From contig JANSYJ010000012.1 in assembly GCA_024742495.1 (NCBI GenBank), positions 10,021 to 74,020 on the forward strand: a stretch of 64,000 nucleotides of DNA, given 5' to 3'. The stretch comes from Bacteroidota bacterium. GTDB taxonomy: Bacteria; Bacteroidota; Bacteroidia; Flavobacteriales; Schleiferiaceae. Shown here in pieces: positions 33,079 through 48,008 of this stretch (position 1 is its first letter; each line of letters begins with the position of its first letter). The notes under the pieces are model-generated. The model saw only the letters and a list, made by a program, of their open reading frames with translations. It ran no database searches and was not told the DNA's origin. The translations under genes and the position numbers were made by a program.

Positions 33079-33771
33079 CTATTTGCTCAAAACATTAGCA
33101 AGCTCATAAAGCACTAAAAACAAGCGGTGGCTCTTCGCTTGCAGGGGTCGAAATTCCGAATGGCGAAAATCCAATAGGCCCGGTTTCTTATCCTTGCTCT
33201 CGAGCTTACCAATATGAAATTGCCCCTCATCCCAGAGCAGCACCTTTTTATACAGGGCTACCGGCCAATCCTTTGGATCTTTTAGTTCGCGTACGATTAG
33301 TAATTCCAATGCCCTGCCTTCCTCATTTATCCAAGGCATACCAGCGTGGGGCTCAAAGCTGAGATAATCCGACTTAATACCCGGCAAGGGCAAATTTAAT
33401 TTCAGAAACTGATCGAGCTCCAGTCCATTAAAATAGTCGTTTCGTTTTTCAGAGCTTATGAACCAAACTGGAGCGAAGCTTTGCGGCATCTTGGTTGGCC
33501 TAAGCTGATTAGCCGCGTTTTTCACATAATCCTTCTTAAAGATGTCGAAATGAAAAAGGTCGTTTACCGAAAGCTCCTTATTGAGAAGGTCATCGGTAGA
33601 AATACCAAAATGCTTAGCAATTTCTATCAATGTTGCTATTTTTGGTTCCGCCCTTCCTTCTTCATAAGCGCCAATACTGGCTCTCTTTAATTCGAATAAA
33701 TCCGCGAAATCACTCTGATTCAAGTTTTTAACCGACCTTATCTTCTTTATATTCTTCCCAACGTATGACAT
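33079..33771 (-). CDS. XRE-family HTH transcriptional regulator with C-terminal domain
   Basis: N-terminal HTH NLNQSDFADLFELKRASIGAYEEGRAEPKIATLIEIAKHFGIS. It is divergent from the pspA-type operon. Confidence 0.8.
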   Translation of the reverse strand: MSYVGKNIKKIRSVKNLNQSDFADLFELKRASIGAYEEGRAEPKIATLIEIAKHFGISTDDLLNKELSVNDLFHFDIFKKDYVKNAANQLRPTKMPQSFAPVWFISSEKRNDYFNGLELDQFLKLNLPLPGIKSDYLSFEPHAGMPWINEEGRALELLIVRELKDPKDWPVALYKKVLLWDEGQFHIGKLESKDKKPGLLDFRHSEFRPLQAKSHRLFLVLYELANVLSK

Positions 33772-33962
33772 AGCACTGAAAATATTTTTGCTAATTTTTT
33801 TGGCAATACTAAAAATGTTAGTATATTAGCACGGTAAAACTAATAATAATAACATGAAAACGGTATTAAAGCTCCTAAATCGACTTTTTGCCCCGCCAAA
33901 AAATCCTAATTTGGTACCTATCTACGCTAAGCAAGAATCGATAAACCAAAACAGTAAAAAAC

Positions 33963-34358
33963 ATGGATAATTATTTCGAACGAGTAAAGAGCTTCCTCCT
34001 AGATTTGGATTATAATATCACCTACGAAAGCGCCGAAGAGGAGGTTTTTGTAGTGGAGAATGCCGACGCTGGCATGCATAATTTAGTTATTGCCGTTGCA
34101 GAGCCCATCATAATCATGGAGCAATATCTCTTCGAACTAAAAGACAACAAACCCGAGGTATTCCAAAAGTTATTGGTGAAAAACCGCGATATCGTACATG
34201 GGGCCTTCGCTTTAGATGAAGCAGGTTATAAAGTAGTGTTTCGCGACACCCTACAACTGGAAAACCTAGACCAAAATGAGATCGAGGGCTCATTAAACTC
34301 CCTTGAACTGCTCCTCAGTGAGTATTCCGACGAATTAATAGAATTTTCAAAAAACTAA
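33963..34358 (+). CDS. YjfI/YbjN-like small cytosolic protein
   Basis: 131 aa and acidic. N-terminal FERVKSFLLDLDYNI...E and C-terminal LEGSLNSLELLLSEY match the pattern of the YbjN/DUF2170 chaperone-like family. It sits directly upstream of a PspA homologue, as yjfI does for yjfJ in E. coli. Confidence 0.55.
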   Translation: MDNYFERVKSFLLDLDYNITYESAEEEVFVVENADAGMHNLVIAVAEPIIIMEQYLFELKDNKPEVFQKLLVKNRDIVHGAFALDEAGYKVVFRDTLQLENLDQNEIEGSLNSLELLLSEYSDELIEFSKN

Positions 34359-34361
34359 GAC

Positions 34362-35084
34362 ATGAGTATTTTCAAACGCATCTTTAGCATCGGTAAAGCC
34401 GAAACAAATGCTGCCCTCAACAAATTAGAGGACCCCATTAAAATGACCGAACAAGGCATCCGCGATCTTAAAATGGATCTCGATAAAGCCTTACAGAGTT
34501 TGGCTGAAATCAAAGCCTTATCCATTCGTTCTCGCAACGACGCGAACACCTATCAGGCGAAAGCCAAAGATTACGAAAAGAAGGCAATTGCCCTTTTACA
34601 AAAAGTAGAGAAAGGTGAACTAGAAGGTGCCGAAGGCGATCGTTTGGCCGGTGAAGCTTTAAACCGCAAAAAAGAAAACGATAGCCTAATGTTACAAGCT
34701 AAAACCGACAAGGAGAAGTTTGATGGCAACATCGACAGCATGGAGAGTAAGATTAAGCGCTTACGCCAGCAAATTAGTCAGTACGAAAACGAGCTGAAAA
34801 CCTTAAAAGCTCGAGTAAAGGTGAGTACCGCTACCAAAAACATCAACAAGCAAATGGCGCAAATCGATTCATCGAGCACCATGAGTATGTTGGAACGTAT
34901 GAAAGACAAAGTAGCGGAAGAAGAAGCACTGGCCGAAAGCTATGGTGATATCGCCAACGAAAGTCGCAGTTTAGATGAGGAATTAGATCGTGCCTTAGAA
35001 GACAGCAACCCTGCAAGCGACGACTTAGCCGCCCTAAAAGCTAAGATGGGGCTGAACAAAGACGAAGAAAAAGACGAAAACTAA
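34362..35084 (+). CDS. PspA/IM30-family protein (YjfJ-like; ESCRT-III superfamily)
   Basis: 240 aa. N-terminal MSIFKRIFSIGKAETNAALNKLEDPIKMTEQGIRDLKMDL followed by a continuous coiled coil, typical of PspA/IM30. Confidence 0.85.
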   Translation: MSIFKRIFSIGKAETNAALNKLEDPIKMTEQGIRDLKMDLDKALQSLAEIKALSIRSRNDANTYQAKAKDYEKKAIALLQKVEKGELEGAEGDRLAGEALNRKKENDSLMLQAKTDKEKFDGNIDSMESKIKRLRQQISQYENELKTLKARVKVSTATKNINKQMAQIDSSSTMSMLERMKDKVAEEEALAESYGDIANESRSLDEELDRALEDSNPASDDLAALKAKMGLNKDEEKDEN

Positions 35085-35107
35085 AACCAGTCTGCTAAAA
35101 CCAAGCA

Positions 35108-35755
35108 ATGAGTGAATTCCTGAATTACATCTTTATTGGAGCTAATGCCGTACCCACGGCATTACTCCTCTTCGTAGTCTTATATTGGATTATTGTAATC
35201 TTTGGCGCCCTAGGTACCGACTTTTTAGATTTCGATATTGATATAGATGCCGATGGTTCTGCCGACCTGGATATGGATGGTGAGGGATTAGAAGTTTCTT
35301 GGTTTAATAATGTCTTGCAGTTCTTTAACCTTGGGAAGATCCCCTTTATGATCTGGCTATCTTTCGTTAGCCTACCGGCGTGGATCTTAAGCGTTAATAT
35401 TAACGGACTCCTCGGTTTTGAAAGCTTCATCCCCGGCTTTTTAGTATTTCTTGCCGCCCTATTTGTAAGCCTCTTCCTGGCGAAATTTTTAACCTGGCCC
35501 TTTGTCAAGTTTTTCGAAAAACTAGATGAGGACACCAAAGCCAAGGAAATTGTAGGCCGCGTAGGCACCGTTACCAGTAAGGCCAGCGGCAGTAGCCGTG
35601 GAATGGCGGAAATAAATTATGATGGCACCTTTTTAAGGATGATGATCCGATGCAGCGAAGGCCAAGAGGCCGAAAAAGGCAGCCAAGTGCTTTTCATCCG
35701 AAAGCTAAACGACCGCGGGGTGTATCTCGTGGAACCCTATACATCAATCGATTAA
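35108..35755 (+). CDS. YqiJ/NfeD-like membrane protein
   Basis: An N-terminal TM is followed by the acidic loop DFLDFDIDIDADGSADLDMDGEG, then TM helices, then a C-terminal OB-like segment (GRVGTVTS...GSQVLFIRK). It sits upstream of a flotillin, as in E. coli yqiJK. Confidence 0.6.
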   Translation: MSEFLNYIFIGANAVPTALLLFVVLYWIIVIFGALGTDFLDFDIDIDADGSADLDMDGEGLEVSWFNNVLQFFNLGKIPFMIWLSFVSLPAWILSVNINGLLGFESFIPGFLVFLAALFVSLFLAKFLTWPFVKFFEKLDEDTKAKEIVGRVGTVTSKASGSSRGMAEINYDGTFLRMMIRCSEGQEAEKGSQVLFIRKLNDRGVYLVEPYTSID

Positions 35756-35771
35756 TCAAAATTCAAACTCT

Positions 35772-37946
35772 ATGGAAATATTCCAAAACTCCTTGACCGT
35801 CTCCATTATAGTCGGTGTTGTGCTGATCTTCGGGATCATCGCCCTCTTCTCAAAATTTTACTACAAAGCTTCGCAAGGTCAAGCCTTAGTGCGCACCGGT
35901 GTTGGCGGTATAAAGGTTTCCTTTAATGGACTGATCGTAATTCCAGTTTTGCATAAAATTGAGATTATGGACATTTCGCTTAATACCATTACGATTGAGC
36001 GAAAAGGCAAGGATGGATTGGTATGTAAAGACAATTTAAGAGCCGACATTAGTGTTGCTTTTTACGTTCGTGTAAATGAAATGCAGCAGGATGTGAAACG
36101 GGTAGCCCAATCGGTAGGTTGTAGCCGAGCATCTTCTAAAGATGCCCTAAGATTACTCTTCGACGCTAAGTTCTCTGAAGCCCTTAAAACGGTAGGTAAG
36201 AAGTTTGAATTTGTAGATCTCTACAATCAAAGGGATGAGTTCCGTAAGGAGATAATCGACATTATTGGCACCGACCTCAACGGTTATATCTTGGACGATG
36301 CGGCCATCGACTTCCTTGAGCAAACCCCGCTTGATTCCTTAGACCCCAACAATATTTTGGATGCTGAGGGTATTAAAAAGATTACCGAGATCACCGCTCG
36401 TGAGGCCGTGAAATCGAACTACATACAAAGGGATAAAGAGAAAACCTTAAAACAACAGGATGTAGAAGCGCGTGAAGCCATTTTAGTCTTAGAAAGACAA
36501 TTAGCCGAATCGGAGGAAAAGCAGAAACGTGAAATCGCCAATGTACACGCTCGGGAACAAGCAGAAATTGATCGGGTAAATGAAGAAGAACGCCTGAAAG
36601 CGGAAAGCGCCCGAATTGCCACCGAAGAAGAACTACAAGTAGCGGAGGAAAATAAACTTCGTCAAGTAATTGTAGCCTCTAAAAACAAGGAGCGTACGGA
36701 GGCCATTGAAACCGAAAGGGTTGAAAAAGATCGCCAATTAGAAGTTACTGAGCGCGAGCGGATTGTTACCCTTACTCAAATTGAAAAAGAAAAGGCGATT
36801 GAAGAGGAGCGTAAGAATATTCAAGAAGTGATTCGCGAAAGAGTAGCGATTGAAAAAACCGTAGTTGACGAAGAGGAACGCATCAAAGATACCCGTGAAT
36901 TTGCCGCAGCCGAACGATTGAAGAAAGTGACCCTCACCGAGGCCGAACAAAGAGCCGAAGCCGCATTGGTTGAAGAAATTAAACGCGCCGAAGCCTCTAA
37001 GCAGTCAGCCGAATTCTTAGCGAAGAAATTAATTATTGATGCCGAAGCGGAACAGCAAAGTGCCACTCAAAAAGCGGAGGCTATTAAAACCTTAGCGGAA
37101 GCAGAAGCGGCCCGTGAAGCCGCCAAAGGAATGGCCGAAGCGCAAGTAATGGAAGCCAAAGCTGCCGCTCGTGAGAAGCAGGGTGAGGCGGAAGCAAGCG
37201 TACTGGAAGATCAAGCGATGGCCGAAGCGAAAGGCATTGAAGCGAAATCGAATGCTCAAGCTGAATCAGATTTAAGAATTGGTAAAGCAGCGGCTGATGT
37301 AAGCAAAGCCCAAGGTTTAGCGGAAGCGGAAGTAATTCGCGAAAAAGCAGAAGCCGAGAAATCCAAAGGATTGGCAGATGCCCAAGTACTACTTGAAAAA
37401 GCACAAGCAGAAGCAGAAGGCATTGACCGTAAAGCCAAAGCCATGAAAACCTTTAATGATGCCGGTAAGGAGCATGAAGAGTTTAAACTGCGCTTGGATA
37501 AAGACCTTAAAATTGAATTGGCTGGCATTAACATCCAAAAGGATATTGCTGATGCCCAGGCCGAAGTGATGTCGGAAGCCTTAAAGAGCGCTAACATCGA
37601 TATTGTCGGAGGCGATCAAGTTTTCTTCGATAAAATCATTGGCGCCATTACCCAAGGTAAGAGCATGGATCGCACCGTGAACAACAGCGAAATTTACAGT
37701 GAAATTAAAGGGCAACTGCTTGACGCAGATGGCAAGAGTTTAATTGATCAGGTGCGAAGCATATTTGCCGAATCGGGACTAAAAAGTGAAGATATCCGCA
37801 ATTTATCGGTAGCGGTATTCCTCAATCGCTTAATGCAACAAACCGATGATCCGCTGAAGAAAAGCAACCTGCAACAAATGTTGGAGCTCGCTCGTAAATC
37901 GGGAATCGGAAACAACTCAATTCAAGACTTAGGCATTATAAATTAA
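35772..37946 (+). CDS. Flotillin-family SPFH/Band-7 protein (YqiK-like)
   Basis: 724 aa. N-terminal TM, SPFH domain (QALVRTGVGG...ISLNTITIE...), about 350 aa of E/A/K-rich coiled coil, and a flotillin-type C-terminus. Confidence 0.85.
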   Translation: MEIFQNSLTVSIIVGVVLIFGIIALFSKFYYKASQGQALVRTGVGGIKVSFNGLIVIPVLHKIEIMDISLNTITIERKGKDGLVCKDNLRADISVAFYVRVNEMQQDVKRVAQSVGCSRASSKDALRLLFDAKFSEALKTVGKKFEFVDLYNQRDEFRKEIIDIIGTDLNGYILDDAAIDFLEQTPLDSLDPNNILDAEGIKKITEITAREAVKSNYIQRDKEKTLKQQDVEAREAILVLERQLAESEEKQKREIANVHAREQAEIDRVNEEERLKAESARIATEEELQVAEENKLRQVIVASKNKERTEAIETERVEKDRQLEVTERERIVTLTQIEKEKAIEEERKNIQEVIRERVAIEKTVVDEEERIKDTREFAAAERLKKVTLTEAEQRAEAALVEEIKRAEASKQSAEFLAKKLIIDAEAEQQSATQKAEAIKTLAEAEAAREAAKGMAEAQVMEAKAAAREKQGEAEASVLEDQAMAEAKGIEAKSNAQAESDLRIGKAAADVSKAQGLAEAEVIREKAEAEKSKGLADAQVLLEKAQAEAEGIDRKAKAMKTFNDAGKEHEEFKLRLDKDLKIELAGINIQKDIADAQAEVMSEALKSANIDIVGGDQVFFDKIIGAITQGKSMDRTVNNSEIYSEIKGQLLDADGKSLIDQVRSIFAESGLKSEDIRNLSVAVFLNRLMQQTDDPLKKSNLQQMLELARKSGIGNNSIQDLGIIN

Positions 37947-37952
37947 GACCAA

Positions 37953-37976
37953 GGGTCGGTTTAAAGGTACCGACCC
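37953..37976 (+). promoter_or_regulatory. Intercistronic 8-bp GC-rich hairpin between the flotillin and AAA+ genes (no T-tract)
   Basis: gggtcggt (37953..37960) pairs with accgaccc (37969..37976) across an 8-nt loop. It lies in the largest gap (45 nt) of the operon. Confidence 0.3.
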
Positions 37977-37991
37977 ATTCCTAAACCAAAC

Positions 37992-40900
37992 ATGGCCGAA
38001 AAAAGCAATATATCAGATTCAAACTCTTTGGAGACGGGCGCCTATACTATTATTCGCGAACGCCTTCAAAATAATGGCAAGGATCTTCAAGCGCGATTAA
38101 AGCAGCTAAATGATGAGCGTCGTCTCGTATTTGGGGCCACCGATACGCGGCTAATCGCCAATGAGCGCATAAGCACCGAACACAATTGTTTGGCACGCGA
38201 TATAGTACCGGTGGGTAATGACTTTTTTTGGTTTGGCTATAATGTTCAAATCGGCCTTAAAGCCGAAACCCATATTTCCGATGTGTTTAGCATTTACCGC
38301 TACGATCGAGAAAACCATCGCTTTCAAAGCACTGAAAGTCCCATTTTTGAGGATCCACAGTTTCAACTCGACTTTCAAAACCTCTACCAATATTACCGCG
38401 AAACGCGATTTAGCAAATTCGCCTTAATCGGTCCCTACCTATTTATGGTGTTTCAGGTGGGTAAGAAGAGAGAGGACATAAAAACCTTTAAATGGGCCCT
38501 GAAAGATGGCGCCTATCACTATGTTGATAATCGCAGCGACCATGAATTTCGCTTTCCCGAACAACATCAATTTAAATGGACTAAGGTAAACCGCGATATG
38601 CACCGCAAAGGACTGCATCCGCATATCTCCATATCGGATCGGCTTTTTGTAGAAACCATCGGTGGCGATCTCACTTTAAAAGTTGAGGACAATACCAATA
38701 GTGGCAAGGGCATTTACAGTGAAGCGGTAGATAATGCGGACCAGACTTTGGATGATGCCGATATCTCTTTTGCCGAAGTAGGAAATATCATCTTACTTAA
38801 GATTCAGCCTTATCTGGAGGATGATTATCGCTACATCATTTTTAATGAGAAAATTCAAGAAGCCAAGCGGGTTGATGCCATTAAAGATGCCTGTGTACTG
38901 CTGCCGGAGGACCAAGGTTTAATTTTCGCCAAAGGCTATTACATCCAAAGTGGTGAAGTGAAGCTTTTTGACAATGAGCTGCAGGGTATGCAGTTTGAAA
39001 AGCGCATTAATTCACCTAATGGTGAGGATGTACTCTATGTCTTCTATCAGCCCGAAAGCGGCACCTATGCCTTAATGCGCTACAATCTCATTGAGCAAGA
39101 AGTAAGCACGCCCATCATTTGCAGTGGCTACAGTCTCTTTGAAGATGGGGAAATGATTTACTTCCGAGCGGAGGAAGAGCAAACAAAGCATCATCTTATA
39201 CAGATTTGGCAAACCCCCTTTTACTCCCCCAATCGCCAAAACGAAGCTAGTAATGACTCCTACCTAGCAAAATTGGGAAATAAGGAAATTGTGCGGGCCA
39301 TGTCGGAATCGAGGGAACTCCTAAAACTAGTTTATAAAGAAGATAACTACCAAGGCCTATACAACGACCTAACTAAGAAAAGCTCCGATATCCTTGACAG
39401 CTACCATTGGTTAGGCTCCGAAGAAGCTTATCAGCTGGAAGCTCCCTTATTGCAAATTAGAGACACGGCTAAAAGTGCCATTGACGAGTACGAAAAGGTT
39501 GTTCAACTTAAGAAAGATAGCAGCCGTTTATACGAAGCCTTTGAGGCTGATTGCCAAAAGAAGTTAAGAGCTCTAAAAGCGGGATTAGGAAATCATATTG
39601 ATGCCTATGTAAAACGCATGGCGGAAATTCGCAGCAGTCGCGGTGAACTCCTCGGTCTTAAGGATTTACCCTATGTAAATACCGAAGGCCTTAATGAGCT
39701 GGAAGAAAAGTTGGCAGAAGCTTCTGAGCATTTAGCTGCTGAAACGGCAAATTTCTTGGTAAAGGAAAAAGCCCTTAATCCTTATCGTGATAAACTCGAT
39801 CAACTGGTAAAGAATTCCGAGGCTCTTCAAAAATCAATTGATGCCAAGAAGCTAGAAGAAGAAAGCCTTCAACTGTCTCAAGAATTGGAGATGCTTATCG
39901 AAACGGTGAGTAATTTACAAATTGAGGACGCCACCCAATCTACCGAGATCATTGACCGGATTTCGGATTTATACGCCGCCTTTAATCAGGCCAAAGCTGG
40001 AATTAAACGCAGTAGAAAAGAATTGGTACTGCGTGAAAGCGCCAGTGAGTTTAAGGCTCAATTGCGTTTGGCCGATCAGAGCTTGAGCAATTTTATTGAA
40101 TTGGCCGATGAACCGGAAAAATGCGATAGCTATCTCAATAAAATGATGATACAGCTGGAGGAGCTGGAAAGTCGTTTTTCCGAATCGGAGGAATTCCTCG
40201 ATCAAATTTCAAATTTAAGAGACGAGGTTTACAACACCTTCGAAACCAAAAAAATACAGCTTAAGGAAGCCCGTAATCGTCGCGCCTTAAAGCTCAGCGA
40301 ATCAGGGAAACGCATTTTGGAAGGCATTCAGCGTCGCCTACAGAATATGGCTAGCAGCGCGGAAATACAGTCCTACTATGCCTCTGACTTTATGGTCTTA
40401 AAATTAAGAGACCAGGCCAAGGCATTAGTGGAATTGGGCGACTCCGTGAAAGCGGATGAATTGGAAAGTCAATTGAAATCGACTTATGAAGATGCCCTTC
40501 GCCAATTAAAAGATCGGCAAGAGCTGTATGCAGATGGCGATAAACTAATCCAACTTGGAAAGCATCGCTTTAGCGTAAACCATCAGGAAATAGATCTTTC
40601 CTTGGTTCAAAGAGAAAATGGAATTTTTTTACACATAAACGGTACTGGCTTTTTTGAAGCGATTGAAAGTGATGATTTAGAAGCTTGTAGACCGGTGTGG
40701 GAACAACATCTGCGCAGTGAAAATGAGCGGGTATATAGAGCCGAGTTTTTGGCCTATTCCATTTTTAAAGCCGCTAAAGTTGGTGAGGAAAGCTGGAATT
40801 TAAAGGAGCTTCATCAACTCGCGCATCAGGAACTTTTACCCCAAGTTCAAAAAGAAATGTCCAGCCGTTTTCAGGAAGCTTATGTAAAAGGGGTGCACGA

Positions 40901-42920
40901 TGAAGATGCGAGCAAAATCTTAGAAGGACTTCTAAAACTACACTTTGAACTTGGACTCTTACGTCATCCTGCCAAAGCAAGGCTATGGGCCCTTTATACC
41001 TGGGACTTTGTTTTAAGCAAGGAGCAAAAGCAAGCGATTAAAGAAGAATTTAATCATGTAAAAAGCATTTTACAATTCTTCCCAAACAGCACTAGTTTTA
41101 AAAGTAGCAAGGAGGCCTTAGCCGAAATTTTGCAATCCGATTCAGCCACAGCCCAGCTCTTAAAGGCTGATGCCAATCAGTTGGATGCCGCGGTAGATTT
41201 TTGCTTTGACTGGCTGAGTCAATCCGAGGCCCTGGCTTTTTCTCAGGAAGCACGAACTTTAGTGGATGCCTTTCAATCAAAGCTGCGAAAAAGCCAAGCC
41301 CTAAAACGTTTTGAGGCCGATTGCAAGCAACAGGCAGATGAACATTGGAGTCAAGCTATAAAACGCATTCACACCTGGCTTGCCGCCTTTACGAGTTCTA
41401 GTGCGCTTAACATTAATGAGGATCACTTCTTGGAGGCTGCCTACTTACTGGGCCTTTCCAAATTAGATGCCGAGCAAGGTCATGTGCATCATACCCAGCT
41501 GGAAATCGACAATATGCGCGGCGAACATCCAAATATTGTGGAAGGTAGCTTAAGCATCGATTACCGCGAATTAGAGGAACGCCTCCAATTCTTTAGTGCG
41601 GAAACAATTCCCTTATACGAGCGCTTTCAAAATATCAAGAAAGAGCTATTAAGAGCGGAACGTCGCAAAATGGGTCTATCCGAATTTAAACCTCGGATTA
41701 TGAGTTCATTCGTGCGTAATGAATTACTGGATGAAGTTTACCTTCCCATGATTGGCGATAACCTTGCAAAGCAGATTGGAGCGGCGGGTAAGGATAAGCG
41801 TACCGACTTAATGGGCATGCTCCTGCTCATCTCTCCTCCCGGTTATGGTAAAACCACCTTGATGGAGTATATCGCCGCCAGGCTGGGATTAGTGTTCATG
41901 AAAATTAACGGTCCTGCTCTTGGTCACGATGTAAAAAGCGTTGATCCCGAAGGGGCGCCAAATGCCGGAGCTAGAGAAGAACTCTATAAGCTGAATTTAG
42001 CCTTTGAGATGGGCGACAATGTGATGATCTATCTCGATGATATTCAACATTGTAATCCCGAGTTTCTTCAAAAATTCATTAGCCTTTGTGATGCCCAACG
42101 AAAAATTGAAGGGGTGTATAAAGGTGAGGCAAAAACCTACGACTTCCGCGGAAAGAAAGTGGCGGTGATTATGGCAGGTAACCCTTATACCGAAAGCGGA
42201 GATAAGTTTCAGATTCCGGATATGCTTGCCAACCGTGCCGATATTTACAATTTAGGAGATATTATTGGCGGCAAAGCAGAGGCCTTTGAATTAAGCTATA
42301 TTGAAAATAGCCTCAGCTCCAACCGCAGCTTGGCTCGTTTAGCGGATAAACCACGGGCAGATTTAAAATCCTTTCTAAGGGCGGCGGTAGATAATCAGCA
42401 GGACCTAGACCTCAAAGACAATTACAGCGCCACCGAAAAAGAAGAGCTATTAAAAGTCCTCCGATTAGCCTATGAGGTGCGCCGTATCGTATTAATGGTT
42501 AACCAGCGCTATATTCATTCTGCCGGTCAGGCCGATGCCTTTAGAAGTGAACCGCCTTTTAAGTTACAAGGTTCCTACCGCGATATGAATAAGCTCTGCG
42601 AAAAGCTAAGTGCCATGATGAATGAATCGGAGCTGGAGCAGATTTTACTATCCCATTATGAAAACGAATCGCAAACTCTAACTCAAGGAGCGGAGTTCAA
42701 TTTCCTTCGCCTCAAGCAGCTTTTGGAGAAAAGCACGCCCGAAGAGGAAGAGCGATTGGCGGAAATATTAAAAGCCTATCAAAAACAGCAGCAAGCCAAG
42801 GGTTATGGCTCTAATCAGGTGGCGCCCATTGTAGAGCGCTTAGAGCAGATGGGCTTCGGACTGCAGGAGCTGGTGCGCATATTTGAAAACGAAAACAAAC
42901 TAAACACTAAAAAAGAATGA
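37992..42920 (+). CDS. 1642-aa protein: N-terminal beta-rich region, long coiled-coil, single C-terminal AAA+ ATPase module
   Basis: Uninterrupted ORF. Walker A LLISPPGYGKTT (K codon 41850..41852). Walker B VMIYLDDIQH (DD at 42036..42041). Sensor-1-like VIMAGNPYT and Arg motif LANRADIYNLGD. Confidence 0.8.
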   Translation: MAEKSNISDSNSLETGAYTIIRERLQNNGKDLQARLKQLNDERRLVFGATDTRLIANERISTEHNCLARDIVPVGNDFFWFGYNVQIGLKAETHISDVFSIYRYDRENHRFQSTESPIFEDPQFQLDFQNLYQYYRETRFSKFALIGPYLFMVFQVGKKREDIKTFKWALKDGAYHYVDNRSDHEFRFPEQHQFKWTKVNRDMHRKGLHPHISISDRLFVETIGGDLTLKVEDNTNSGKGIYSEAVDNADQTLDDADISFAEVGNIILLKIQPYLEDDYRYIIFNEKIQEAKRVDAIKDACVLLPEDQGLIFAKGYYIQSGEVKLFDNELQGMQFEKRINSPNGEDVLYVFYQPESGTYALMRYNLIEQEVSTPIICSGYSLFEDGEMIYFRAEEEQTKHHLIQIWQTPFYSPNRQNEASNDSYLAKLGNKEIVRAMSESRELLKLVYKEDNYQGLYNDLTKKSSDILDSYHWLGSEEAYQLEAPLLQIRDTAKSAIDEYEKVVQLKKDSSRLYEAFEADCQKKLRALKAGLGNHIDAYVKRMAEIRSSRGELLGLKDLPYVNTEGLNELEEKLAEASEHLAAETANFLVKEKALNPYRDKLDQLVKNSEALQKSIDAKKLEEESLQLSQELEMLIETVSNLQIEDATQSTEIIDRISDLYAAFNQAKAGIKRSRKELVLRESASEFKAQLRLADQSLSNFIELADEPEKCDSYLNKMMIQLEELESRFSESEEFLDQISNLRDEVYNTFETKKIQLKEARNRRALKLSESGKRILEGIQRRLQNMASSAEIQSYYASDFMVLKLRDQAKALVELGDSVKADELESQLKSTYEDALRQLKDRQELYADGDKLIQLGKHRFSVNHQEIDLSLVQRENGIFLHINGTGFFEAIESDDLEACRPVWEQHLRSENERVYRAEFLAYSIFKAAKVGEESWNLKELHQLAHQELLPQVQKEMSSRFQEAYVKGVHDEDASKILEGLLKLHFELGLLRHPAKARLWALYTWDFVLSKEQKQAIKEEFNHVKSILQFFPNSTSFKSSKEALAEILQSDSATAQLLKADANQLDAAVDFCFDWLSQSEALAFSQEARTLVDAFQSKLRKSQALKRFEADCKQQADEHWSQAIKRIHTWLAAFTSSSALNINEDHFLEAAYLLGLSKLDAEQGHVHHTQLEIDNMRGEHPNIVEGSLSIDYRELEERLQFFSAETIPLYERFQNIKKELLRAERRKMGLSEFKPRIMSSFVRNELLDEVYLPMIGDNLAKQIGAAGKDKRTDLMGMLLLISPPGYGKTTLMEYIAARLGLVFMKINGPALGHDVKSVDPEGAPNAGAREELYKLNLAFEMGDNVMIYLDDIQHCNPEFLQKFISLCDAQRKIEGVYKGEAKTYDFRGKKVAVIMAGNPYTESGDKFQIPDMLANRADIYNLGDIIGGKAEAFELSYIENSLSSNRSLARLADKPRADLKSFLRAAVDNQQDLDLKDNYSATEKEELLKVLRLAYEVRRIVLMVNQRYIHSAGQADAFRSEPPFKLQGSYRDMNKLCEKLSAMMNESELEQILLSHYENESQTLTQGAEFNFLRLKQLLEKSTPEEEERLAEILKAYQKQQQAKGYGSNQVAPIVERLEQMGFGLQELVRIFENENKLNTKKE

Positions 42921-43468
42921 GCTTATTCGGTAATTTATTTGGCTCCAAAAAGGAGGAAGAACCCAATCCATTTGGGCGTACGCCGGCCGACTTAGACCAG
43001 GGTTTTATTTTTGAATACGACCTTCAAAGCTGGGAAGTTATGGCCGTGTATGAATACGACTGGGGCGATGAAAACTTCAGCAAGGAGTTTAAGGTGAGTG
43101 ATGGCACAAACACCTATTTCCTTTCGGTGGAAGACGACGATCAATTGGAAATGACCTGGAGTCAGAAAATCTCCTTGAACGCCATAGAAGGGCGAATTGC
43201 CAGTCAAATTGAAGAAAATGAACGACCGCCAGAGAGCCTCGTTTATGAAGGAAAAACTTTTTATTTGGAAGAAGAAAGTGCTGGCTATTTTCATGAGAAA
43301 GGCAGCGGCGAAGAGGCCTGGACGGAATTTATGGTTTGGGACTATTTCGATAAAAAGGAAGAAACTTCCCTGAGCATTGAACAATGGGGACCACGATCTT
43401 TTGAAGCATCCTATGGTAAGGTGCTAAAGAATCACGAAATTTCGGACATCCTACCAAGGCAACAATAA
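42917..43468 (+). CDS. DUF4178-like protein
   Basis: 183 aa. The pattern FEYDLQSWEVMAVYEYDWGDE...YFLSVEDDD is repeated in WTEFMVWDYFD...LSIEQW. ATGA overlap with the AAA+ gene. Confidence 0.5.
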   Translation: MSLFGNLFGSKKEEEPNPFGRTPADLDQGFIFEYDLQSWEVMAVYEYDWGDENFSKEFKVSDGTNTYFLSVEDDDQLEMTWSQKISLNAIEGRIASQIEENERPPESLVYEGKTFYLEEESAGYFHEKGSGEEAWTEFMVWDYFDKKEETSLSIEQWGPRSFEASYGKVLKNHEISDILPRQQ

Positions 43469-43469
43469 A

Positions 43470-44237
43470 ATGAGACAAGTACACAAATTCCTTAGCATTT
43501 TAACTCTGGTCCTTGTGGCCCAAGCTTGCGGACCTGGCAGTCCAAGCTTTGTTAAAAATCCCCTTGATGACATCGTGAAAGAACTAAGTGAAGTTCCAAA
43601 CTTCAGTATCATTCTTTACGATATGAATTTTGATGAGGCCACGGAGCAGTATCAACATCAATATCGGATTCTAAAAGAGCCCCAGGGCGCGGATACCATA
43701 GAAACGGAAACCACCGACTGGAAGCAAGTAAGCCCCGAATATTTCAATGAGCACATTGAAAATATGGGCATGACCATCGTTTCAAAATCTAATGGCACGG
43801 TCGACAAAAAGGTAAGTCCTCCGGGTTATAATCAATATGTAGGCAATGAAAAATACGGACAATGGAGCCAAAACTCAGATGGCACCAGCTTTTGGGAATT
43901 CTATGGCAAATATGCCTTTCTCCGCAGTATGCTTGGTTTTGGTTACTCTCCTATTTACTATGGGGGCTGGAATGATTACCGACGGAATTATTACCCCTAC
44001 GGTAGAACCTATTACGGCCAAGGCTCAAACGGAAGAAACAGGTATGGAACCAATAGCACCCATAATCAGAGCCGAAGTAAAGCCTCAACCTGGAGTGGTA
44101 AAAACCAAGACTTTAAAAACAAAGTCCGCAGTAGAGCCCAAAGAAGCTCCAGTAGAACTAGCAAAAGAAGTCGTTCCGGATCGCGCTACCGCAGTGGATC
44201 CAGCAGTCGCGGACGTGGATTTGGCGGTGGTAAATAA
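43470..44237 (+). CDS. Lipoprotein with Tyr/Gly-rich middle and Arg/Ser/Gly-rich tail (YjfM-like)
   Basis: Lipobox LVAQACGPG. The C-terminus ...SRTSKRSRSGSRYRSGSSSRGRGFGGGK resembles the tail of E. coli YjfM (from my memory of that sequence). Confidence 0.5.
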   Translation: MRQVHKFLSILTLVLVAQACGPGSPSFVKNPLDDIVKELSEVPNFSIILYDMNFDEATEQYQHQYRILKEPQGADTIETETTDWKQVSPEYFNEHIENMGMTIVSKSNGTVDKKVSPPGYNQYVGNEKYGQWSQNSDGTSFWEFYGKYAFLRSMLGFGYSPIYYGGWNDYRRNYYPYGRTYYGQGSNGRNRYGTNSTHNQSRSKASTWSGKNQDFKNKVRSRAQRSSSRTSKRSRSGSRYRSGSSSRGRGFGGGK

Positions 44238-44254
44238 TCCTAAAACTAAACAGA

Positions 44255-45136
44255 ATGACTACAGAGATCCTCAGCAACGAATGGGCCAACGACCTTCTCC
44301 TCTTCAGTATTTATTTGGTAAGTTCCCTACTCCTACTCTACCTTGGTAAATGGGCTTTTAAAATTACCAAAGCGAGCATTAATCCTGCTCACGAAATGGT
44401 GGAGAAAGATAATCTCGCCTTTAGCTTCGCCTATACCGGATATTTTGCCGGCTTACTATTAGCCGTTGGTTCGGCGGTTTATGGCGATTCCCTAGGTTTA
44501 TTAACCGACTTGGAAGACATGGCCATTTTCGGTCTGCTGGCCATCGTGCTACTCAATCTTTCTTCTTTAATTATTGATAAAATCACCCTCCGTAAATTTT
44601 CGATTTGGAAAGAAATTACTGAAGACCGCAATGCGGGAATGGGTATTATTGAAGGGGCGAATTATGTGGCCAGTGGTTTAATAATATTTGGAGCAATTAC
44701 CGGCGAAAGCGGTAATCTGCTTTTTGGTATTTATACCGCCGTAGCTTATTGGGCAATCGGACAGGTGCTTATCATTTTAGCCACTGCCATTTACAATCGC
44801 TTTATGCCCTACTCTCTTCACGATGAGATTGAAAAGGATAATAATGCTGCGGGCCTTGCCTTTGCAGGTTTAATTATTGCGGTGGCCAATTTAATTCGCA
44901 ATGGACTAATGGGCGACTTTGCATCTTGGGATGAAACCCTTATTGAAGTAGCTTATGAAACCGGAATCGGCCTAATTATTTTACCGCTAATTCGCACCTT
45001 GGTCGATCGAATACTATTGCCTGGTCGCAAATTAAGTGATGAAATTGCGGGCCAAGAAAAGCCCAATGTAGGGGCAGGATTAATAGAGGCCTTTGGCTAT
45101 ATCGGCGGTTCAGTCTTAATTATTTGGTGTATCTAA
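44255..45136 (+). CDS. Polytopic membrane protein with four DUF350 (YjfL-like) repeats
   Basis: About 8 TM helices. Four repeats begin EKDNLAFSFAYTGYFAG, EDRNAGMGIIEGANYVASG, EKDNNAAGLAFAGLIIAVA and EKPNVGAGLIEAFGYIGG. Confidence 0.6.
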   Translation: MTTEILSNEWANDLLLFSIYLVSSLLLLYLGKWAFKITKASINPAHEMVEKDNLAFSFAYTGYFAGLLLAVGSAVYGDSLGLLTDLEDMAIFGLLAIVLLNLSSLIIDKITLRKFSIWKEITEDRNAGMGIIEGANYVASGLIIFGAITGESGNLLFGIYTAVAYWAIGQVLIILATAIYNRFMPYSLHDEIEKDNNAAGLAFAGLIIAVANLIRNGLMGDFASWDETLIEVAYETGIGLIILPLIRTLVDRILLPGRKLSDEIAGQEKPNVGAGLIEAFGYIGGSVLIIWCI

Positions 45137-45137
45137 A

Positions 45138-46685
45138 TTGGCATTAAGGCGATCCCCTTTTTTAAAGCTTGCCCTTTTTGCAACCGGCTTATCGGGCATC
45201 GTAGCGGAGTATATCCTCTCTACCTTGGCCACTTACTTTATTGGCGATTCGGCAGTACAATGGTCGCTAATAGTTTCGGTGATGCTCTTTTCCATGGGCC
45301 TAGGCTCGCGCATTAGCAAATACCTCGAAGGGAATCTGCTCATTAAATTCATCGGGGTAGAATTTGCCCTGAGCATTTTAGTGTCTTTCTCCTCCTTGGT
45401 GGCCTATACCGCCGCCGGACTCACCGAATATGTAGCCTTAATCATTTACGGAATGAGCATTTTAATCGGCCTGCTCATTGGGCTAGAAATTCCCTTGGTA
45501 ATTCGGCTAAACGAAGAGTTTGAGAGCTTGAAAGTGAATGTCGCCTCGGTGATGGAAAAAGACTATTTAGGCTCCTTAGTCGGTGGTTTATTTTTTGCTT
45601 TTGTTGGTCTCCCCCTAATTGGATTAACCTACACCCCATTTATACTCGGCTTTATTAATTTGATGGTGGCCCTTGGCCTATTCCTTAGTGTGCGCGGCGA
45701 CCTTGCCCTTAAATTTAAAAGACGCATTGTATTTGCCTCTTCCCTTATTGTGGTCATTATGTTGGGGGGAATACTAAAGGCCGAACCGATAATCCTCTTT
45801 GGTGAGCAAGCGCGCTATAAAGATCGAGTGGTATTCTCCGCTGAAAGCAAGTATCAGAAAATTGTGATCACCCAATGGAAGGACCATTATTGGCTTTACC
45901 TTAATGGAAATCAACAACTCAGCTCCCTCGACGAGCAAAAATACCACGAGGCCTTAGTTCATCCTGCCGCTCATTTAGCGCATCAAATTAAGGATGTACT
46001 GGTTTTAGGCGGTGGCGACGGATGCGCGGCCCGAGAGCTTTTAAAATACCCGGAATTACAAAGTATTACTATAGTTGATTTAGACTCCATGATGACCGGT
46101 TTAGCGCAGCGTCATCCGATTTTAACCGATTTAAATCACAATGCTTTAAATCATAAAAAGGTGAAGATTGTCAATTCCGATGCCTTCAACTATATGGAGC
46201 GGGAAAAGCAGCTTTACGATTTAATCATTGTAGATCTTCCTGATCCGCGTTCCGTTGAACTCAACCGTATGTACACTAGTGAGTTTTATCGTTTATGTCA
46301 TTTAAAGCTCCGTCCGCATGGCGCTTTAATCACCCAAGCTGGCAGTCCCTATTTTGCTACTAAAGCTTTTCAATGCATTTCCAAAACCATGAGCTCGGCT
46401 GGTTTTGAGTCCTTGGCGCTGCACAATCACGTGCTTACCTTAGGCGAGTGGGGCTGGGTGCTGGGGCAGAAATCCGAATGGACCCAAGGACAATTAAAGG
46501 AAAGGGCACGCCAGCTTCAGTTTAAGGACATTGAAACCAATTGGTTAAATAATGAAGCCATGTTGCTTATGAGCTCCTTTGGGAAGAATATTTATTTTGA
46601 GGTGAAGGACAGTATAAAGGTGAATCACATCCAAGACCCGGTACTGTATCGCTATTATTTAAAAGGCAACTGGGATCTCTATTAA
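45138..46685 (+). CDS. Membrane-anchored spermidine-synthase-like polyamine aminopropyltransferase
   Basis: TTG start 1 nt after the previous stop. An N-terminal region of about 210 aa is polytopic. The SpeE-type domain carries VLVLGGGDGCAAREL, DLIIVDLPDP and ITQAGSPYF. Confidence 0.75.
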   Translation: MALRRSPFLKLALFATGLSGIVAEYILSTLATYFIGDSAVQWSLIVSVMLFSMGLGSRISKYLEGNLLIKFIGVEFALSILVSFSSLVAYTAAGLTEYVALIIYGMSILIGLLIGLEIPLVIRLNEEFESLKVNVASVMEKDYLGSLVGGLFFAFVGLPLIGLTYTPFILGFINLMVALGLFLSVRGDLALKFKRRIVFASSLIVVIMLGGILKAEPIILFGEQARYKDRVVFSAESKYQKIVITQWKDHYWLYLNGNQQLSSLDEQKYHEALVHPAAHLAHQIKDVLVLGGGDGCAARELLKYPELQSITIVDLDSMMTGLAQRHPILTDLNHNALNHKKVKIVNSDAFNYMEREKQLYDLIIVDLPDPRSVELNRMYTSEFYRLCHLKLRPHGALITQAGSPYFATKAFQCISKTMSSAGFESLALHNHVLTLGEWGWVLGQKSEWTQGQLKERARQLQFKDIETNWLNNEAMLLMSSFGKNIYFEVKDSIKVNHIQDPVLYRYYLKGNWDLY

Positions 46686-46686
46686 G

Positions 46687-47007
46687 ATGGAAGAAAGTAA
46701 GATCTACAACTACCGAATCTGGCTGGCCAAAAGCGAAACAGTCCCTCTTAAAAACAAGATTGAAGAGATGCTTAAAGCGGCGGGCTACGGCATAGTTGGT
46801 TTTAGCGAACATCACTTTCAACCGCAGGGCTATACCTGCACATGGCTGCTCAGTGAAAGTCACTGCGCCTTGCACACCTTTCCCGAGGAAGGTCGCTCCT
46901 ACATTGAGTTAAGTGGCTGCTCGGAAGCCAAGAATAGTCACTTTGTGAAGGCCGCCAATGCTGCATGGAAAGATTATATTCGCAAGGCGCTACAATCCGT
47001 TTGTTAA
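46687..47007 (+). CDS. Pyruvoyl-dependent S-adenosylmethionine decarboxylase proenzyme (SpeH/SpeD-like, short form)
   Basis: Self-cleavage/active-site motif LLSESHCALHTFPEEG, with Glu-Ser at 46855..46860. 106 aa. It starts 1 nt after the speE-like stop. Confidence 0.7.
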   Translation: MEESKIYNYRIWLAKSETVPLKNKIEEMLKAAGYGIVGFSEHHFQPQGYTCTWLLSESHCALHTFPEEGRSYIELSGCSEAKNSHFVKAANAAWKDYIRKALQSVC

Positions 47008-48008
47008 TGAAAAAGCATTTTTTAGTCCTATTTCTTTTTTGCTTCACGATCAGCAATGCCCAAGAATCCAAGTACGCCATTATTATTCACGGCGGGGCCG
47101 GAAATGGTTTAGTTCCAGGAAACTATAATGAAGTGCAAACTGCGGCTTTTCATCACGCTCTTAATGCCGCTCTCGCACGAGGAGACTCTGCCCTGGCCGC
47201 TGGGGCGGATGCACTTGATGTTGTGAGTTTGGTGATACAGGTTTTGGAGAACGATTCCCTTTTTAATGCCGGCAAGGGTGCGGTACTTACCTATGAAGCT
47301 AAGGCCTCCTTAGACGCCAGTATTATGGATGGTGCCAGTTTGGAAGCTGGCGCCGTAGCGGGTGTTTCTTGTATTAAAAACCCCATTACCGCAGCCTTAA
47401 GTGTACTGCGTCATTCGCCACATGTTATTCTTAGCGGAGCTGGCGCAGATCGCTATGCCCAGGAGAAAGGTAGTATATGTGTGGATCCTTCCTACTTTAT
47501 AATCCCTAGTAAGCTTAAGACAATAAAACGCATCCGCAAGGAGCAAGAAGCCCTGGATAGCGCTCAAAATCATAAAATGGGAACGGTTGGTTGCGTGGTG
47601 CGAGACCGCGAGGGGAACATTGCCGCTGGAACTTCTACCGGAGGTATGATGGCCAAGCGTTACGGTAGAATTGGCGATTCACCAATTGTGGGCGCTGGAA
47701 CCTATGCCAATAATTCTTCCGCGGGGATAAGCTGCACCGGGCATGGCGAATACTTTATTCGCAATGTAATCGCCTTTCAGGTCGCTAATCGGGTAGACCT
47801 AATTGAAGAATCGGGACAAGAGGCCGCCGATTATATGATTCACGATGTACTGAGCAGTCAAAAAGCCTTTGGCGGCTTAATAGGCATTGACCGCAATGGG
47901 GAGCTTTTTTACAGCTTTAATACCACTGGTATGTTAAGAGGTTTTAAGCGCGAAGGTGAAAAAGCCCAAACCTATATTTTCAGCCTCGAAATTGAGGGAG
48001 ACAATTGA
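47007..48008 (+). CDS. Isoaspartyl peptidase / L-asparaginase (Ntn hydrolase), secreted
   Basis: ATG 47007 overlaps the previous stop (TAATG). Signal MKKHFLVLFLFCFTISNAQ, IIHGGAG, and autoprocessing site HKMGTVGCV. Confidence 0.8.
   Translation: MKKHFLVLFLFCFTISNAQESKYAIIIHGGAGNGLVPGNYNEVQTAAFHHALNAALARGDSALAAGADALDVVSLVIQVLENDSLFNAGKGAVLTYEAKASLDASIMDGASLEAGAVAGVSCIKNPITAALSVLRHSPHVILSGAGADRYAQEKGSICVDPSYFIIPSKLKTIKRIRKEQEALDSAQNHKMGTVGCVVRDREGNIAAGTSTGGMMAKRYGRIGDSPIVGAGTYANNSSAGISCTGHGEYFIRNVIAFQVANRVDLIEESGQEAADYMIHDVLSSQKAFGGLIGIDRNGELFYSFNTTGMLRGFKREGEKAQTYIFSLEIEGDN

Follow-up and report, generated by a model that had tools for sequence, protein, structure and literature searches.

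Gene order and regulatory region

We analysed a window of 64,000 nucleotides (nt) from a Bacteroidota assembly (GCA_024742495.1, contig JANSYJ010000012.1, positions 10,021 to 74,020), which carries ten open reading frames (ORFs) on the plus strand between positions 33963 and 47007. Together with a divergently oriented regulator gene, they form what is probably one repressor-controlled envelope-stress operon of an Owenweeksiaceae-like marine Bacteroidota genome assembled from metagenome data, built from three interchangeable modules that are also found alone. The first module would be composed of a CesT/Tir-like chaperone and a PspA of the YjfJ type, a predicted membrane-binding polymer with the ESCRT-III fold. 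The second would consist of a YqiJ/NfeD-like protein, an SPFH/flotillin scaffold and a giant propeller-coiled-coil-AAA+ protein. The third would comprise a DUF4178 protein, a lipoprotein, a DUF350 protein with eight transmembrane (8TM) helices, an aminopropyltransferase (SpeE) with seven such helices (7TM) and its own S-adenosylmethionine (AdoMet) decarboxylase (SpeD), which would supply decarboxylated AdoMet.

In the ORF listing of the window, on which the coordinates, gaps and overlaps are based, the first five genes are separated by 3, 23, 16 and 45 nt, the AAA+ and DUF4178 genes overlap by 4 nt, and the subsequent gaps measure 1, 17, 1 and 1 nt. A reading made earlier from the sequence only, hereafter the sequence-only reading, had described these ten co-directional ORFs, their gaps and overlaps and a possible eleventh gene exactly as they stand. 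The eleventh gene corresponds to the ORF at 46965–48008, in which an internal ATG at 47007 (M15) is followed by a signal peptide; this ATG overlaps the stop codon of the SpeD gene by 1 base and is the start chosen by gene callers in relatives. The unit comprises eleven genes in the window's lineage, plus the divergent regulator. The SpeE ORF (45138–46685) opens with TTG, a start that is supported because the NCBIfam profile PRK03612 aligns from residue 6, because homologues and homologous loci align from residues 1–5, and because many database homologues have a length of 513–519 residues.

The regulator gene lies on the minus strand (33079–33771) and encodes a 230-residue protein of the XRE/Cro type, recognized in Pfam by its helix-turn-helix (HTH) domain (HTH_19, 1.7e-11; HTH_3, 3.9e-10). 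The HTH is all that Pfam detects: the C-terminal domain is uncharacterised and shows no S24 protease domain in Pfam, whereas '<-cHTH+Protease' is listed at this slot in Dokdonia in the text and tables of Ravi et al. 2024 (PMC11237479). In 46 loci, a divergent homologue of the gene lies ahead of that for CesT, in forms of the operon that carry the second module (long) and in those that do not (short) alike, and the protein is likely the operon's repressor. Outside the window's lineage the regulators are longer, with about 250–265 residues (e.g. L004, 3974–4771). By eye, these longer proteins seem to carry an S24/LexA-like barrel in which the serine of the GDSM motif is replaced (…GSEMEY…), followed by a C-terminal coiled coil; window-lineage regulators carry a different C-terminal domain.

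The divergent intergenic region spans 191 nt and contains a putative promoter/operator block (33786–33845, plus strand), which directly adjoins the start codon of the regulator gene. The block is made up of three elements, TGCTAA-N5-TTGGCA, a palindrome of the CTAAAA-N-TTTTAG type and TAtATTnG. In the window, the first is formed by TGCTAA at 33789 and TTGGCA at 33800 and appears as GCTCAA-N3-TTGAGC in other loci, while the palindrome-like CTAAAAATGTTAG (33809–33821) is placed between the TTTG/TTGGCA element and TATATTAG (33822–33829). Alignment of the first 85 nt from the regulator start in 44 distinct loci, belonging to both short and long forms, shows that the block is kept, with the consensus TTTTGCTAAT.TT.T..GC-AA.TCTAAAA.T.-TTAGTA. 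The best sigma-70-like match of the whole region, TTGGCA-16-TATATT (10/12, 33800–33827), falls in this block. Promoters of Bacteroidota follow the pattern TTTG / TAnnTTTG, and the spacer of a promoter is a classic place for a repressor to bind. The bases of the block also fit TTTG / TAnnTTTG with a spacing of 20 nt, and the palindrome lands in the spacer. We infer from this arrangement a Bacteroidota −33/−7 promoter with an operator in its spacer. Further upstream, 2.6 kb from the operon, the window carries a gene for a nucleotidyltransferase toxin of the AbiEii family (type IV toxin-antitoxin or abortive infection; 30344–31354).

Long and short forms of the operon

Conservation was surveyed from two anchors, the AAA+ gene (one genome per GTDB species, best 80 loci) and the DUF4178 gene (metagenome contigs, 80 loci, of which 74 are distinct). 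Absence of a gene within the 10-kb flanks gives a lower bound on its presence, as illustrated by Owenweeksia, where a module lies about 14 kb away. Relatives at 71–81% identity (L081, L082, L087–L089) keep the whole block, from the regulator through the ten genes to the eleventh, an Asparaginase_2 gene, while the outer flanks of the operon differ among them. The whole block is also present in the cultured Croceimicrobium hydrocarbonivorans (L084, complete genome CP060139.1, locus at about 1,078,763–1,091,600; Owenweeksiaceae, Flavobacteriales). In the neighbourhood check anchored on homologues of the 1642-residue AAA+ protein, which the sequence-only reading had proposed, the unit is kept as a block in relatives.

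Sixty-four of the AAA+-anchored loci extend at least 4.5 kb upstream. A YqiJ-like gene followed by an SPFH gene on the same strand precedes the AAA+ gene in 55 of them, and flotillin only in 6. These flotillin-AAA+ loci span Bacteroidota, Planctomycetota, Verrucomicrobiota, Desulfobacterota, Kiritimatiellota, Omnitrophota and Clostridia. The CesT-PspA pair with its divergent regulator is found upstream of the triad in 22 of the 64, all from Bacteroidota. The merged form, in which the third module follows the AAA+ gene, was retrieved with this anchor from L004 (Roseivirga), L006, L033 (Flammeovirgaceae) and L036 (a metagenome-assembled genome of Flavobacteriaceae). In a neighbour-joining tree of the AAA+ proteins, merged loci fall into three separate clades: the window with L081 and L082; L004, L006 and L033; and L036. 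The block is kept despite differing flanks and the same order occurs in at least three AAA+ clades, so that the gene arrangement is far beyond chance. A merged form limited to the window's lineage is rejected, as it recurs in at least three clades of Bacteroidota.

The DUF4178-anchored survey reveals the short form, with the order regulator | CesT-PspA-DUF4178-Lipo-DUF350-SpeE(-SpeD), in which pspA stands directly upstream of the DUF4178 gene (32/74). The long form, with the AAA+ gene no more than 2.6 kb upstream, accounts for 16 of the 74, and at least 3 more have it at 3.6–4.8 kb; 14 are too short to judge, and the remainder have other neighbours. One short form (L090) comes from the window's own lineage, with identities of 78% for CesT, 84% for PspA, 79% for SpeE and 61% for Asparaginase_2. 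YqiJ-flotillin-AAA+ is a three-gene cassette, present or absent at a fixed pspA|DUF4178 junction. As the whole triad is present or absent together, the ATPase belongs to, and travels with, flotillin and not PspA. It is the third member of this cassette, and not, as had been proposed from the sequence, a giant ATPase inserted between two modules.

The tails of the operon vary. The window's lineage ends with SpeD and Asparaginase_2. The latter occupies the same position in L081, L082, L084 and L087–L089 as well as in the short-form L090 and is absent in other clades; its link to the operon is lineage-specific. In L036 (10494–11507), the end of the SpeD gene is overlapped by a gene for a TrkA-N/Ion_trans_2 K+ channel. 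In the Roseivirga locus L004 (19741–24658), the tail is a convergent cluster of a second membrane SpeE-like gene, a flavin amine oxidase gene and two unknown genes. The clusters of L004, L006 and L033 contain no SpeD gene. In Owenweeksia, a phage-type integrase gene and a TIR-domain gene come after SpeD.

Proteins of the three modules

Nine of the ten domain calls of the sequence-only reading hold, that of YqiJ only weakly and below the cut-off; PspA, SPFH and DUF350 are among the assignments supported by profile searches in Pfam and NCBIfam.

The first gene (33963–34358, plus strand) encodes a CesT/Tir-like chaperone of 131 residues, an analogue of YjfI, which matches CesT_Tir_1 over its full length (PF22550, 1.6e-53). 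It had been read as YjfI/YbjN-like; the YbjN match is weak (20.8 bits, below the Pfam cut-off). The genes are not orthologues of the E. coli yjf genes: the first is CesT_Tir_1 and not DUF2170, the slot of DUF2491 is taken by DUF4178, and the lipoprotein is not DUF1190. A PDB sequence search with this protein gave no match. In the loci examined, the gene is always paired with that of PspA, which follows in the window at 34362–35084 (plus strand) and encodes a PspA/IM30-family protein of 240 residues. The PF04012 match spans residues 2–228, nearly the full length, and is above the gathering score (140.2 bits versus a cut-off of 33.9; 1e-40). Equivalog scores in NCBIfam are far under their cut-offs (TIGR02977, 55 versus 243; NF007974, 39 versus 336), hence the protein is not an orthologue of E. 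coli PspA; its profile matches place it in a paralogous, YjfJ-like branch of the ESCRT-III superfamily.

The triad opens with a predicted YqiJ/YuaF (NfeD-like) membrane protein of 215 residues (35108–35755, plus strand). It matches YqiJ_N at 19.3 bits versus a cut-off of 23 and the NfeD profile at E=0.22, and has hydrophobic segments at about 18–36 and 78–136; its YqiJ/NfeD identity is weakly indicated, mainly by synteny and topology. The next gene (35772–37946, plus strand) encodes a membrane-anchored SPFH/Band-7 flotillin-like protein of 724 residues, with one N-terminal transmembrane (TM) segment (8–26) and a long coiled coil rich in Glu, Ala and Lys. The full-length protein has no match in Pfam; when the N-terminal 232 residues are scanned by themselves, Band_7 is detected over residues 32–172 (51.2 bits versus 23.6; 2e-13). 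The Flot domain (PF15975) was not found in the C-terminal 160 residues at Pfam E values up to 1; the label 'TM-Flotillin' in the text and tables of Ravi et al. (PMC11237479) comes from profile-profile searches. The PDB sequence search gave no match for this protein either.

The giant AAA+ protein (1642 residues; 37992–42920, plus strand) is composed of DUF3686 (31–472), DUF7902 (593–677), a long helical region and a single AAA+ module at about 1277–1420 that is recognized by the Pfam families AAA_5 (28.8 versus 22) and AAA (28.2 versus 21.2). The module carries a Walker A motif (PPGYGKTT), a Walker B motif (IYLDDIQH), a sensor-1 (AGNP) and a candidate arginine finger in ANRAD, which are invariant among 12–18 homologues. 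The AlphaFold2 (AF2) model of residues 1151–1642 has a pLDDT of 71.8, and Foldseek relates it to NorQ and CbbQ (MoxR class), RuvB and Clp with E values of about 5e-6 and low TM scores, the probability being 1.0 for NorQ, RuvB and CbbQ. Single-sequence and profile searches of the PDB with the protein returned matches at the level of Walker A only, and PDB sequence searches found no solved relative for the N-terminal 1200 residues. A Vps4-like ATPase identity was rejected: Pfam gives no MIT match, no aromatic pore-loop motif is seen between Walker A and Walker B, and the likeness to classical AAA proteins is at the Walker A level only. The family counts more than 5600 homologues, mostly annotated 'DNA repair ATPase' and some 'MoxR-like ATPase'. 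The former name was likewise rejected: it looks like a wrong legacy label, because all 61 informative neighbourhoods are flotillin/YqiJ membrane contexts, and the likeness to the RuvB P-loop is weak.

The third module begins with the DUF4178 protein (183 residues; 42917–43468, plus strand; PF13785, 9.4e-23), whose alignment contains 33 invariant columns. It has neither hydrophobic segment nor signal peptide and is predicted to be cytoplasmic. The lipoprotein gene follows (255 residues; 43470–44237, plus strand) and encodes a protein of the Ctha_1186 type of Ravi et al., with a signal peptide and a lipobox, ...LVAQA|C, by the PROSITE lipobox rule; no Pfam or NCBIfam family matches it. Its globular part carries the motif PPGYxxYVGNxxYGxW...GxSFWxFYG, and its tail (44058–44237) is basic and rich in Ser and Arg, with the terminus ...RGRGFGGGK. 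Among 62 distinct homologues, the last 60 residues contain 8–18 Lys and Arg and 0–3 Asp and Glu, and the conserved residues are K216 (in FKxxV), R235, R239, R247, R249 and the C-terminal GxGK. Judged by these alignments, the tail exceeds mere low complexity: it is conserved and always strongly basic. The DUF350 protein (293 residues; 44255–45136, plus strand), an integral membrane protein of the YjfL family, contains two DUF350 units (PF03994, 2.7e-51). The '4x DUF350' of the sequence-only reading equals two copies of the current 133-residue model. A crude scan gives at least six hydrophobic segments, and the text and tables of Ravi et al. 2024 class the protein as YjfL family with 8TM (PMC11237479).

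SpeE (45138–46685, plus strand) is a predicted membrane-anchored aminopropyltransferase with about seven N-terminal TM helices (8–216) and a catalytic domain at 228–515 (PF01564, 5e-35, 121 bits). In NCBIfam it scores 551 bits against NF002956 (PRK03612, 'polyamine aminopropyltransferase'; cut-off 472) and is also above the cut-off of NF037959, the fused MFS/spermidine synthase family (44.7 versus 40). The GGGDG motif of the decarboxylated AdoMet site (G291–G295) and the catalytic D-L-P-D-P motif (D366/D369-P370) are invariant in 36 sequences. The AF2 model (pLDDT 84.6) finds its best Foldseek matches in the Thermus triamine/agmatine aminopropyltransferase and in thermospermine synthase (1uir, 3anx and 6bq6); soluble SpeE structures only were retrieved, and the TM domain was not matched. 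In 36 homologues, the mean number of Lys and Arg is 1.9 (N-terminus), 1.3 (loop 2-3), 3.0 (loop 4-5) and 3.3 (loop 6-7), versus 0, 0.03 and 0 in the odd loops 1-2, 3-4 and 5-6. Over the part that corresponds to residues 1–230 (window 45138–45830), the distribution in these homologues comes to about 12 for the N-terminus and even loops versus about 0 for the odd loops. With the positive-inside rule and seven helices, such a pattern would place the N-terminus inside and the C-terminus outside, and it suggests that the catalytic domain faces the periplasm. DSSP of the AF2 model fuses TM5 and TM6, so that the topology is to be read as 6 versus 7 crossings, and a periplasmic domain would require exported decarboxylated AdoMet.

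SpeD (106 residues; 46687–47007, plus strand) is a homologue of the class-1b-type AdoMet decarboxylase (AdoMetDC) proenzyme (PF02675, 52 bits versus 25; 1e-13) and scores below the cut-off of TIGR03330 (47 versus 75.7). Alignment with 1tlu and 2iii shows that the E-S processing site, the next His and the Cys are kept (LLSESHCALHTFPE...SGC), LLSES-HCALH...SGC being aligned with the AdoMetDC of T. maritima and Aquifex. By these residues, the SpeE/SpeD pair looks catalytically competent. Some SpeD homologues are neofunctionalised and act as decarboxylases of ornithine or arginine (PMC10407285), for which reason AdoMet is a likely rather than a proven substrate. The eleventh gene (47007–48008, plus strand) encodes a secreted Asparaginase_2 of 333 residues, of the Ntn-hydrolase isoaspartyl peptidase/asparaginase type (PF01112, 7e-97), with the signal peptide MKKHFLVLFLFCFTISNAQ.

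Relation to known systems and proposed function

The constituent associations of the operon were already published in 2024 (PMC11237479), in agreement with the caveat of the sequence-only reading that parts of them were known. In the text and tables of Ravi et al. 2024 (mSystems, PMC11237479), the CesT/Tir-PspA pair is the core of several operon classes. The first class combines it with YqiJ, a Band-7/flotillin protein and a β-propeller-AAA+ protein, with Dokdonia donghaensis IS97_2772 / ANH61663.1 and its divergent cHTH as prototype. The second combines it with DUF4178, a spermine/spermidine synthase fused to 7TM, YjfL/DUF350 and a Ctha_1186 lipoprotein whose tail is of low complexity (Shewanella oneidensis SO_3763-3766 / AAN56746.1). 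The third is an E. coli-like version with ATP-grasp.

The gene set of the first class is present in the window in one direction and in the same order as tabulated there: divergent cHTH, CesT_Tir, PspA, YqiJ/YuaF, Band-7+coiled-coil+flotillin and propeller+coiled-coil+AAA+, the β-propeller label of DUF3686 being that of Ravi et al. The tabulated Dokdonia row stops at the AAA+ gene, whereas the window runs unbroken into DUF4178-lipoprotein-DUF350-SpeE-SpeD-Asparaginase_2; the first-class form was found here in 22 Bacteroidota loci. The gene set of the second class (CesT/Tir-PspA, DUF4178, tailed lipoprotein, DUF350 and TM-fused SpeE) is present as well, in a different order. The tabulated Shewanella operon reads Lipo-DUF350-SpeE-CesT(DUF2170)-PspA-DUF4178-RHH, in contrast to CesT_Tir_1-PspA-[triad]-DUF4178-Lipo-DUF350-SpeE-SpeD in Bacteroidota, with a divergent HTH regulator and without the RHH gene. 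By domain content, the window is Ravi classes 1 and 2 merged around one shared CesT-PspA pair. The sequence-only reading was right that modules are merged into one unit, yet the modules and the giant ATPase already figure, as two operon classes, in the text and tables of that study. Among the 'spermine' rows of its supplement, which are confined to the Shewanella operon and a domain table, there is no merged row. Neither the text nor the tables list the 11-gene merger, the fact that it recurs in at least three clades, the behaviour of the triad as a cassette, the operator block or the conservation of the lipoprotein tail.

Other systems share parts of this logic. In E. coli, yjfIJKLMC encodes DUF2170, a PspA paralogue, DUF2491, DUF350, DUF1190 and an ATP-grasp enzyme resembling glutathionylspermidine synthetase, and yqiJK encodes an NfeD-like protein and flotillin. 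The slots are analogous (chaperone-like protein, PspA paralogue, soluble protein, DUF350, lipoprotein and polyamine-related enzyme; NfeD-like protein and flotillin). However, the window has no matches to DUF2170, DUF2491, DUF1190 or ATP-grasp and shares the PspA and DUF350 families alone, and the two E. coli operons are separate, with no DUF3686 AAA+ gene beside yqiJK. Domain matches confirm the earlier proposal that the ATP-grasp slot of yjfIJKLMC is taken by the SpeE/SpeD pair.

In Pseudomonas aeruginosa bacABCDEF (PA3732-...), the YjfI-family BacA, of which a crystal structure exists, is encoded directly upstream of the PspA homologue BacB; bac mutants are altered in their biofilms, in rhamnolipid secretion, in swarming and in virulence, and osmotic shock raises BacB (PMC10948618). 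This operon is proteobacterial and differs from the window in carrying DUF2170 instead of CesT_Tir_1, in its putative sigma-54 promoter and in the lack of a spermidine-synthase homologue within or close to it. In Bacillus subtilis pspA-ydjGHI, an SPFH-domain protein is co-encoded with PspA and, in the published accounts of this operon, needed to link PspA to the membrane (PMC8581546; PMC9239133). That protein, YdjI, is soluble, in contrast to the window's, with YdjG and YdjH as partners and without AAA+ or polyamine genes. As in archaeal and eukaryotic ESCRT-III/Vps4 systems, a polymer of the predicted ESCRT-III fold is co-encoded here with an AAA+ ATPase, but the latter has no MIT domain or specific Vps4 likeness in sequence or fold and covaries with flotillin, not with PspA. 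A Vps4-like ATPase appears to be absent in bacteria according to a 2025 review (PMC7619361). The clusters of MFS-fused spermidine synthase (SpdSyn) with class 1b AdoMetDC and DUF350 have in common with the window a membrane-fused SpdSyn-like enzyme beside AdoMetDC and DUF350, with the window's SpeE above the NF037959 cut-off; this SpeE differs in having PRK03612 as its best family and about seven TM helices.

Taken as one operon of three modules, the locus could work as follows, although our confidence in the individual steps is much lower than in the overall reading. The HTH repressor would silence the operon until envelope or membrane damage induces it. The chaperone may hold the PspA paralogue soluble and assembly-incompetent until release at the membrane. 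SPFH cages of YqiJ/flotillin would mark or organise the damaged patch of inner membrane and recruit PspA, by analogy with YdjI as described for B. subtilis (PMC8581546). The AAA+ protein might spend ATP in assembling or recycling polymers of flotillin, perhaps also of PspA. The SpeD/SpeE/DUF350/lipoprotein/DUF4178 set would bring positive charge to the envelope, either as a polyamine made there or through aminopropylation, at the membrane, of an acceptor other than putrescine.

Several observations weigh against this reading. The merger is the minority state, since DUF4178-lipoprotein-DUF350-SpeE lies within 2.6 kb downstream of the AAA+ gene in 4 of 74 informative loci. In Owenweeksia (OZ243107.1), an ORFan island of about 14 kb lies between the AAA+ gene and DUF4178-Lipo-DUF350-SpeE-SpeD, which share a strand, so that direct adjacency of modules 2 and 3 is dispensable; the ORFs of this island (L001, 14960–24887; L083, 1–7730), including proteins of 1116 and 701 residues, match no Pfam family. 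Some loci stop after DUF350, with DUF4178-Lipo-DUF350 and no SpeE nearby. The Walker B motif of the AAA+ protein has Asp-Asp, not Asp-Glu, and no aromatic pore loop is recognisable between Walker A and Walker B; the protein is close to no solved clade, which makes a clade assignment impossible and its action on polymers a guess. The putative promoter is assigned by consensus matches.

The merger frequency and the Owenweeksia insertion would also be expected if the modules were independent systems, juxtaposed and co-transcribed for convenience, their adjacency being without mechanistic meaning. Each module is indeed common alone: 38 of 64 loci have the triad but no PspA, 32 loci are short forms that lack the triad, and Lipo-DUF350-SpeE stands alone in Catalinimonas (L085). 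However, the triad always lies at the pspA|DUF4178 junction in at least three clades, and the genes of the window are tightly spaced, with the AAA+/DUF4178 overlap. Moreover, one set of partners, the CesT-PspA pair with its regulator/operator, is associated with the triad and, independently, with the aminopropyl module, the pattern expected from a shared effector. We consider mere juxtaposition unlikely.

Within the favoured reading of one envelope-stress operon, the product of its last enzymes is less clear. SpeE and SpeD could be a housekeeping spermidine pathway placed at the end of a stress operon and yielding ordinary free spermidine, as the equivalog score of SpeE, the intact catalytic residues of both enzymes and structural best matches to genuine polyamine aminopropyltransferases would allow. 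Against this stand the fusion of SpeE to about seven TM helices, the lipoprotein and DUF350 genes that nearly always precede it, its score above the fused MFS/spermidine-synthase cut-off and the lack of SpeD in the three clusters mentioned above, which together render the housekeeping explanation quite improbable. Related MFS-SpdSyn clusters reportedly gave no spermidine and did not complement an E. coli speE mutant, and Li et al. 2019 are said to have proposed that the fused family aminopropylates a substrate other than putrescine. The 'local polyamine production' of the sequence-only reading is for this reason uncertain: the catalytic residues that it presupposes are intact, and the activity itself is not established. 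In the text of Ravi et al. (PMC11237479), 'aminopropylation of other substrates' is considered, with reference to Li et al. 2019.

The lipoprotein offers a candidate for such a substrate. Silaffin peptides are rich in Ser and Lys, and their lysines bear polyamines. The tail of the lipoprotein, which is silaffin-like in composition, might accept aminopropyl groups or serve as an arm that binds polyanions. The acceptor role is weakened because the tail persists in loci without an adjacent SpeE, and the tail as an obligatory substrate of SpeE is weakened on the same ground. A far-reaching version, which we regard as a long shot, would have a periplasmic SpeE aminopropylate an envelope-bound acceptor, with decarboxylated AdoMet exported via its own TM domain or DUF350 and the lipoprotein tail (the FKxxV lysine and the C-terminal G-x-G-K) as top candidate. 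It would amount to a bacterial protein-polyamination system that deposits tethered positive charge on the damaged envelope, and one operon would couple it to an ESCRT-III-type polymer, to a flotillin cage and to an AAA+ remodeller of a new class.

Anti-phage defence, to which a 'phage shock' protein, a large NTPase, the nearby AbiEii gene and weak domain-level matches in PADLOC (SpeE-mad2 and AAA+-mad8) could point, is hardly credible, because no PADLOC system model fits the gene set, these matches concern generic methyltransferase-fold and AAA+ domains, the operon is found in relatives at a conserved place in the chromosome, next to housekeeping genes, and AbiEii is not conserved beside it.

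In operons of this type, the genes for PspA, flotillin and a large AAA+ protein of uncharacterised function all follow one conserved promoter region. The presence of such an operon in the cultured C. hydrocarbonivorans makes possible remodelling of bacterial flotillin or PspA polymers by an ATPase directly testable, and long variants with the triad and short ones without it occur naturally and lend themselves to comparison. The membrane SpeE/SpeD/DUF350/lipoprotein set is widespread, and if its acceptor were found, this would establish a new type of envelope modification. The practical value is limited by the publication of the associations in 2024 and by the predictive nature of the functional claims.

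Some minor features lie within and beyond the operon. Intrinsic-terminator-like sites are no commoner on either strand than in shuffled sequence, and the first convincing terminator hairpins are found beyond tRNA-Val, downstream of the eleventh gene. The terminator and sigma-70 promoter scans perform no better than on shuffles and leave a single transcript neither proved nor disproved. The 45-nt gap between the flotillin and AAA+ genes contains a GC-rich hairpin, GGGTCGGT-N8-ACCGACCC (37953–37976, no strand assigned), which is not followed by a T-run on the plus strand. L081 (9955–9985) has a hairpin of another sequence at the same junction, the structure being kept and the sequence not, and the gap in L082 is just 9 nt, without a hairpin. 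It may be an element of mRNA processing, stability or attenuation and could adjust the amounts of upstream relative to downstream products. Downstream of the operon, tRNA-Val(TAC) is located at 48112–48187, and a tandem array of 3.1 units of 172 bp (48171–48696, 93% matches) begins within its 3' end, each unit bearing a hairpin and a T-run. Croceimicrobium has no such array between its Asparaginase_2 gene and the conserved downstream genes. The array resembles a series of att-like scars left by an integrating element.

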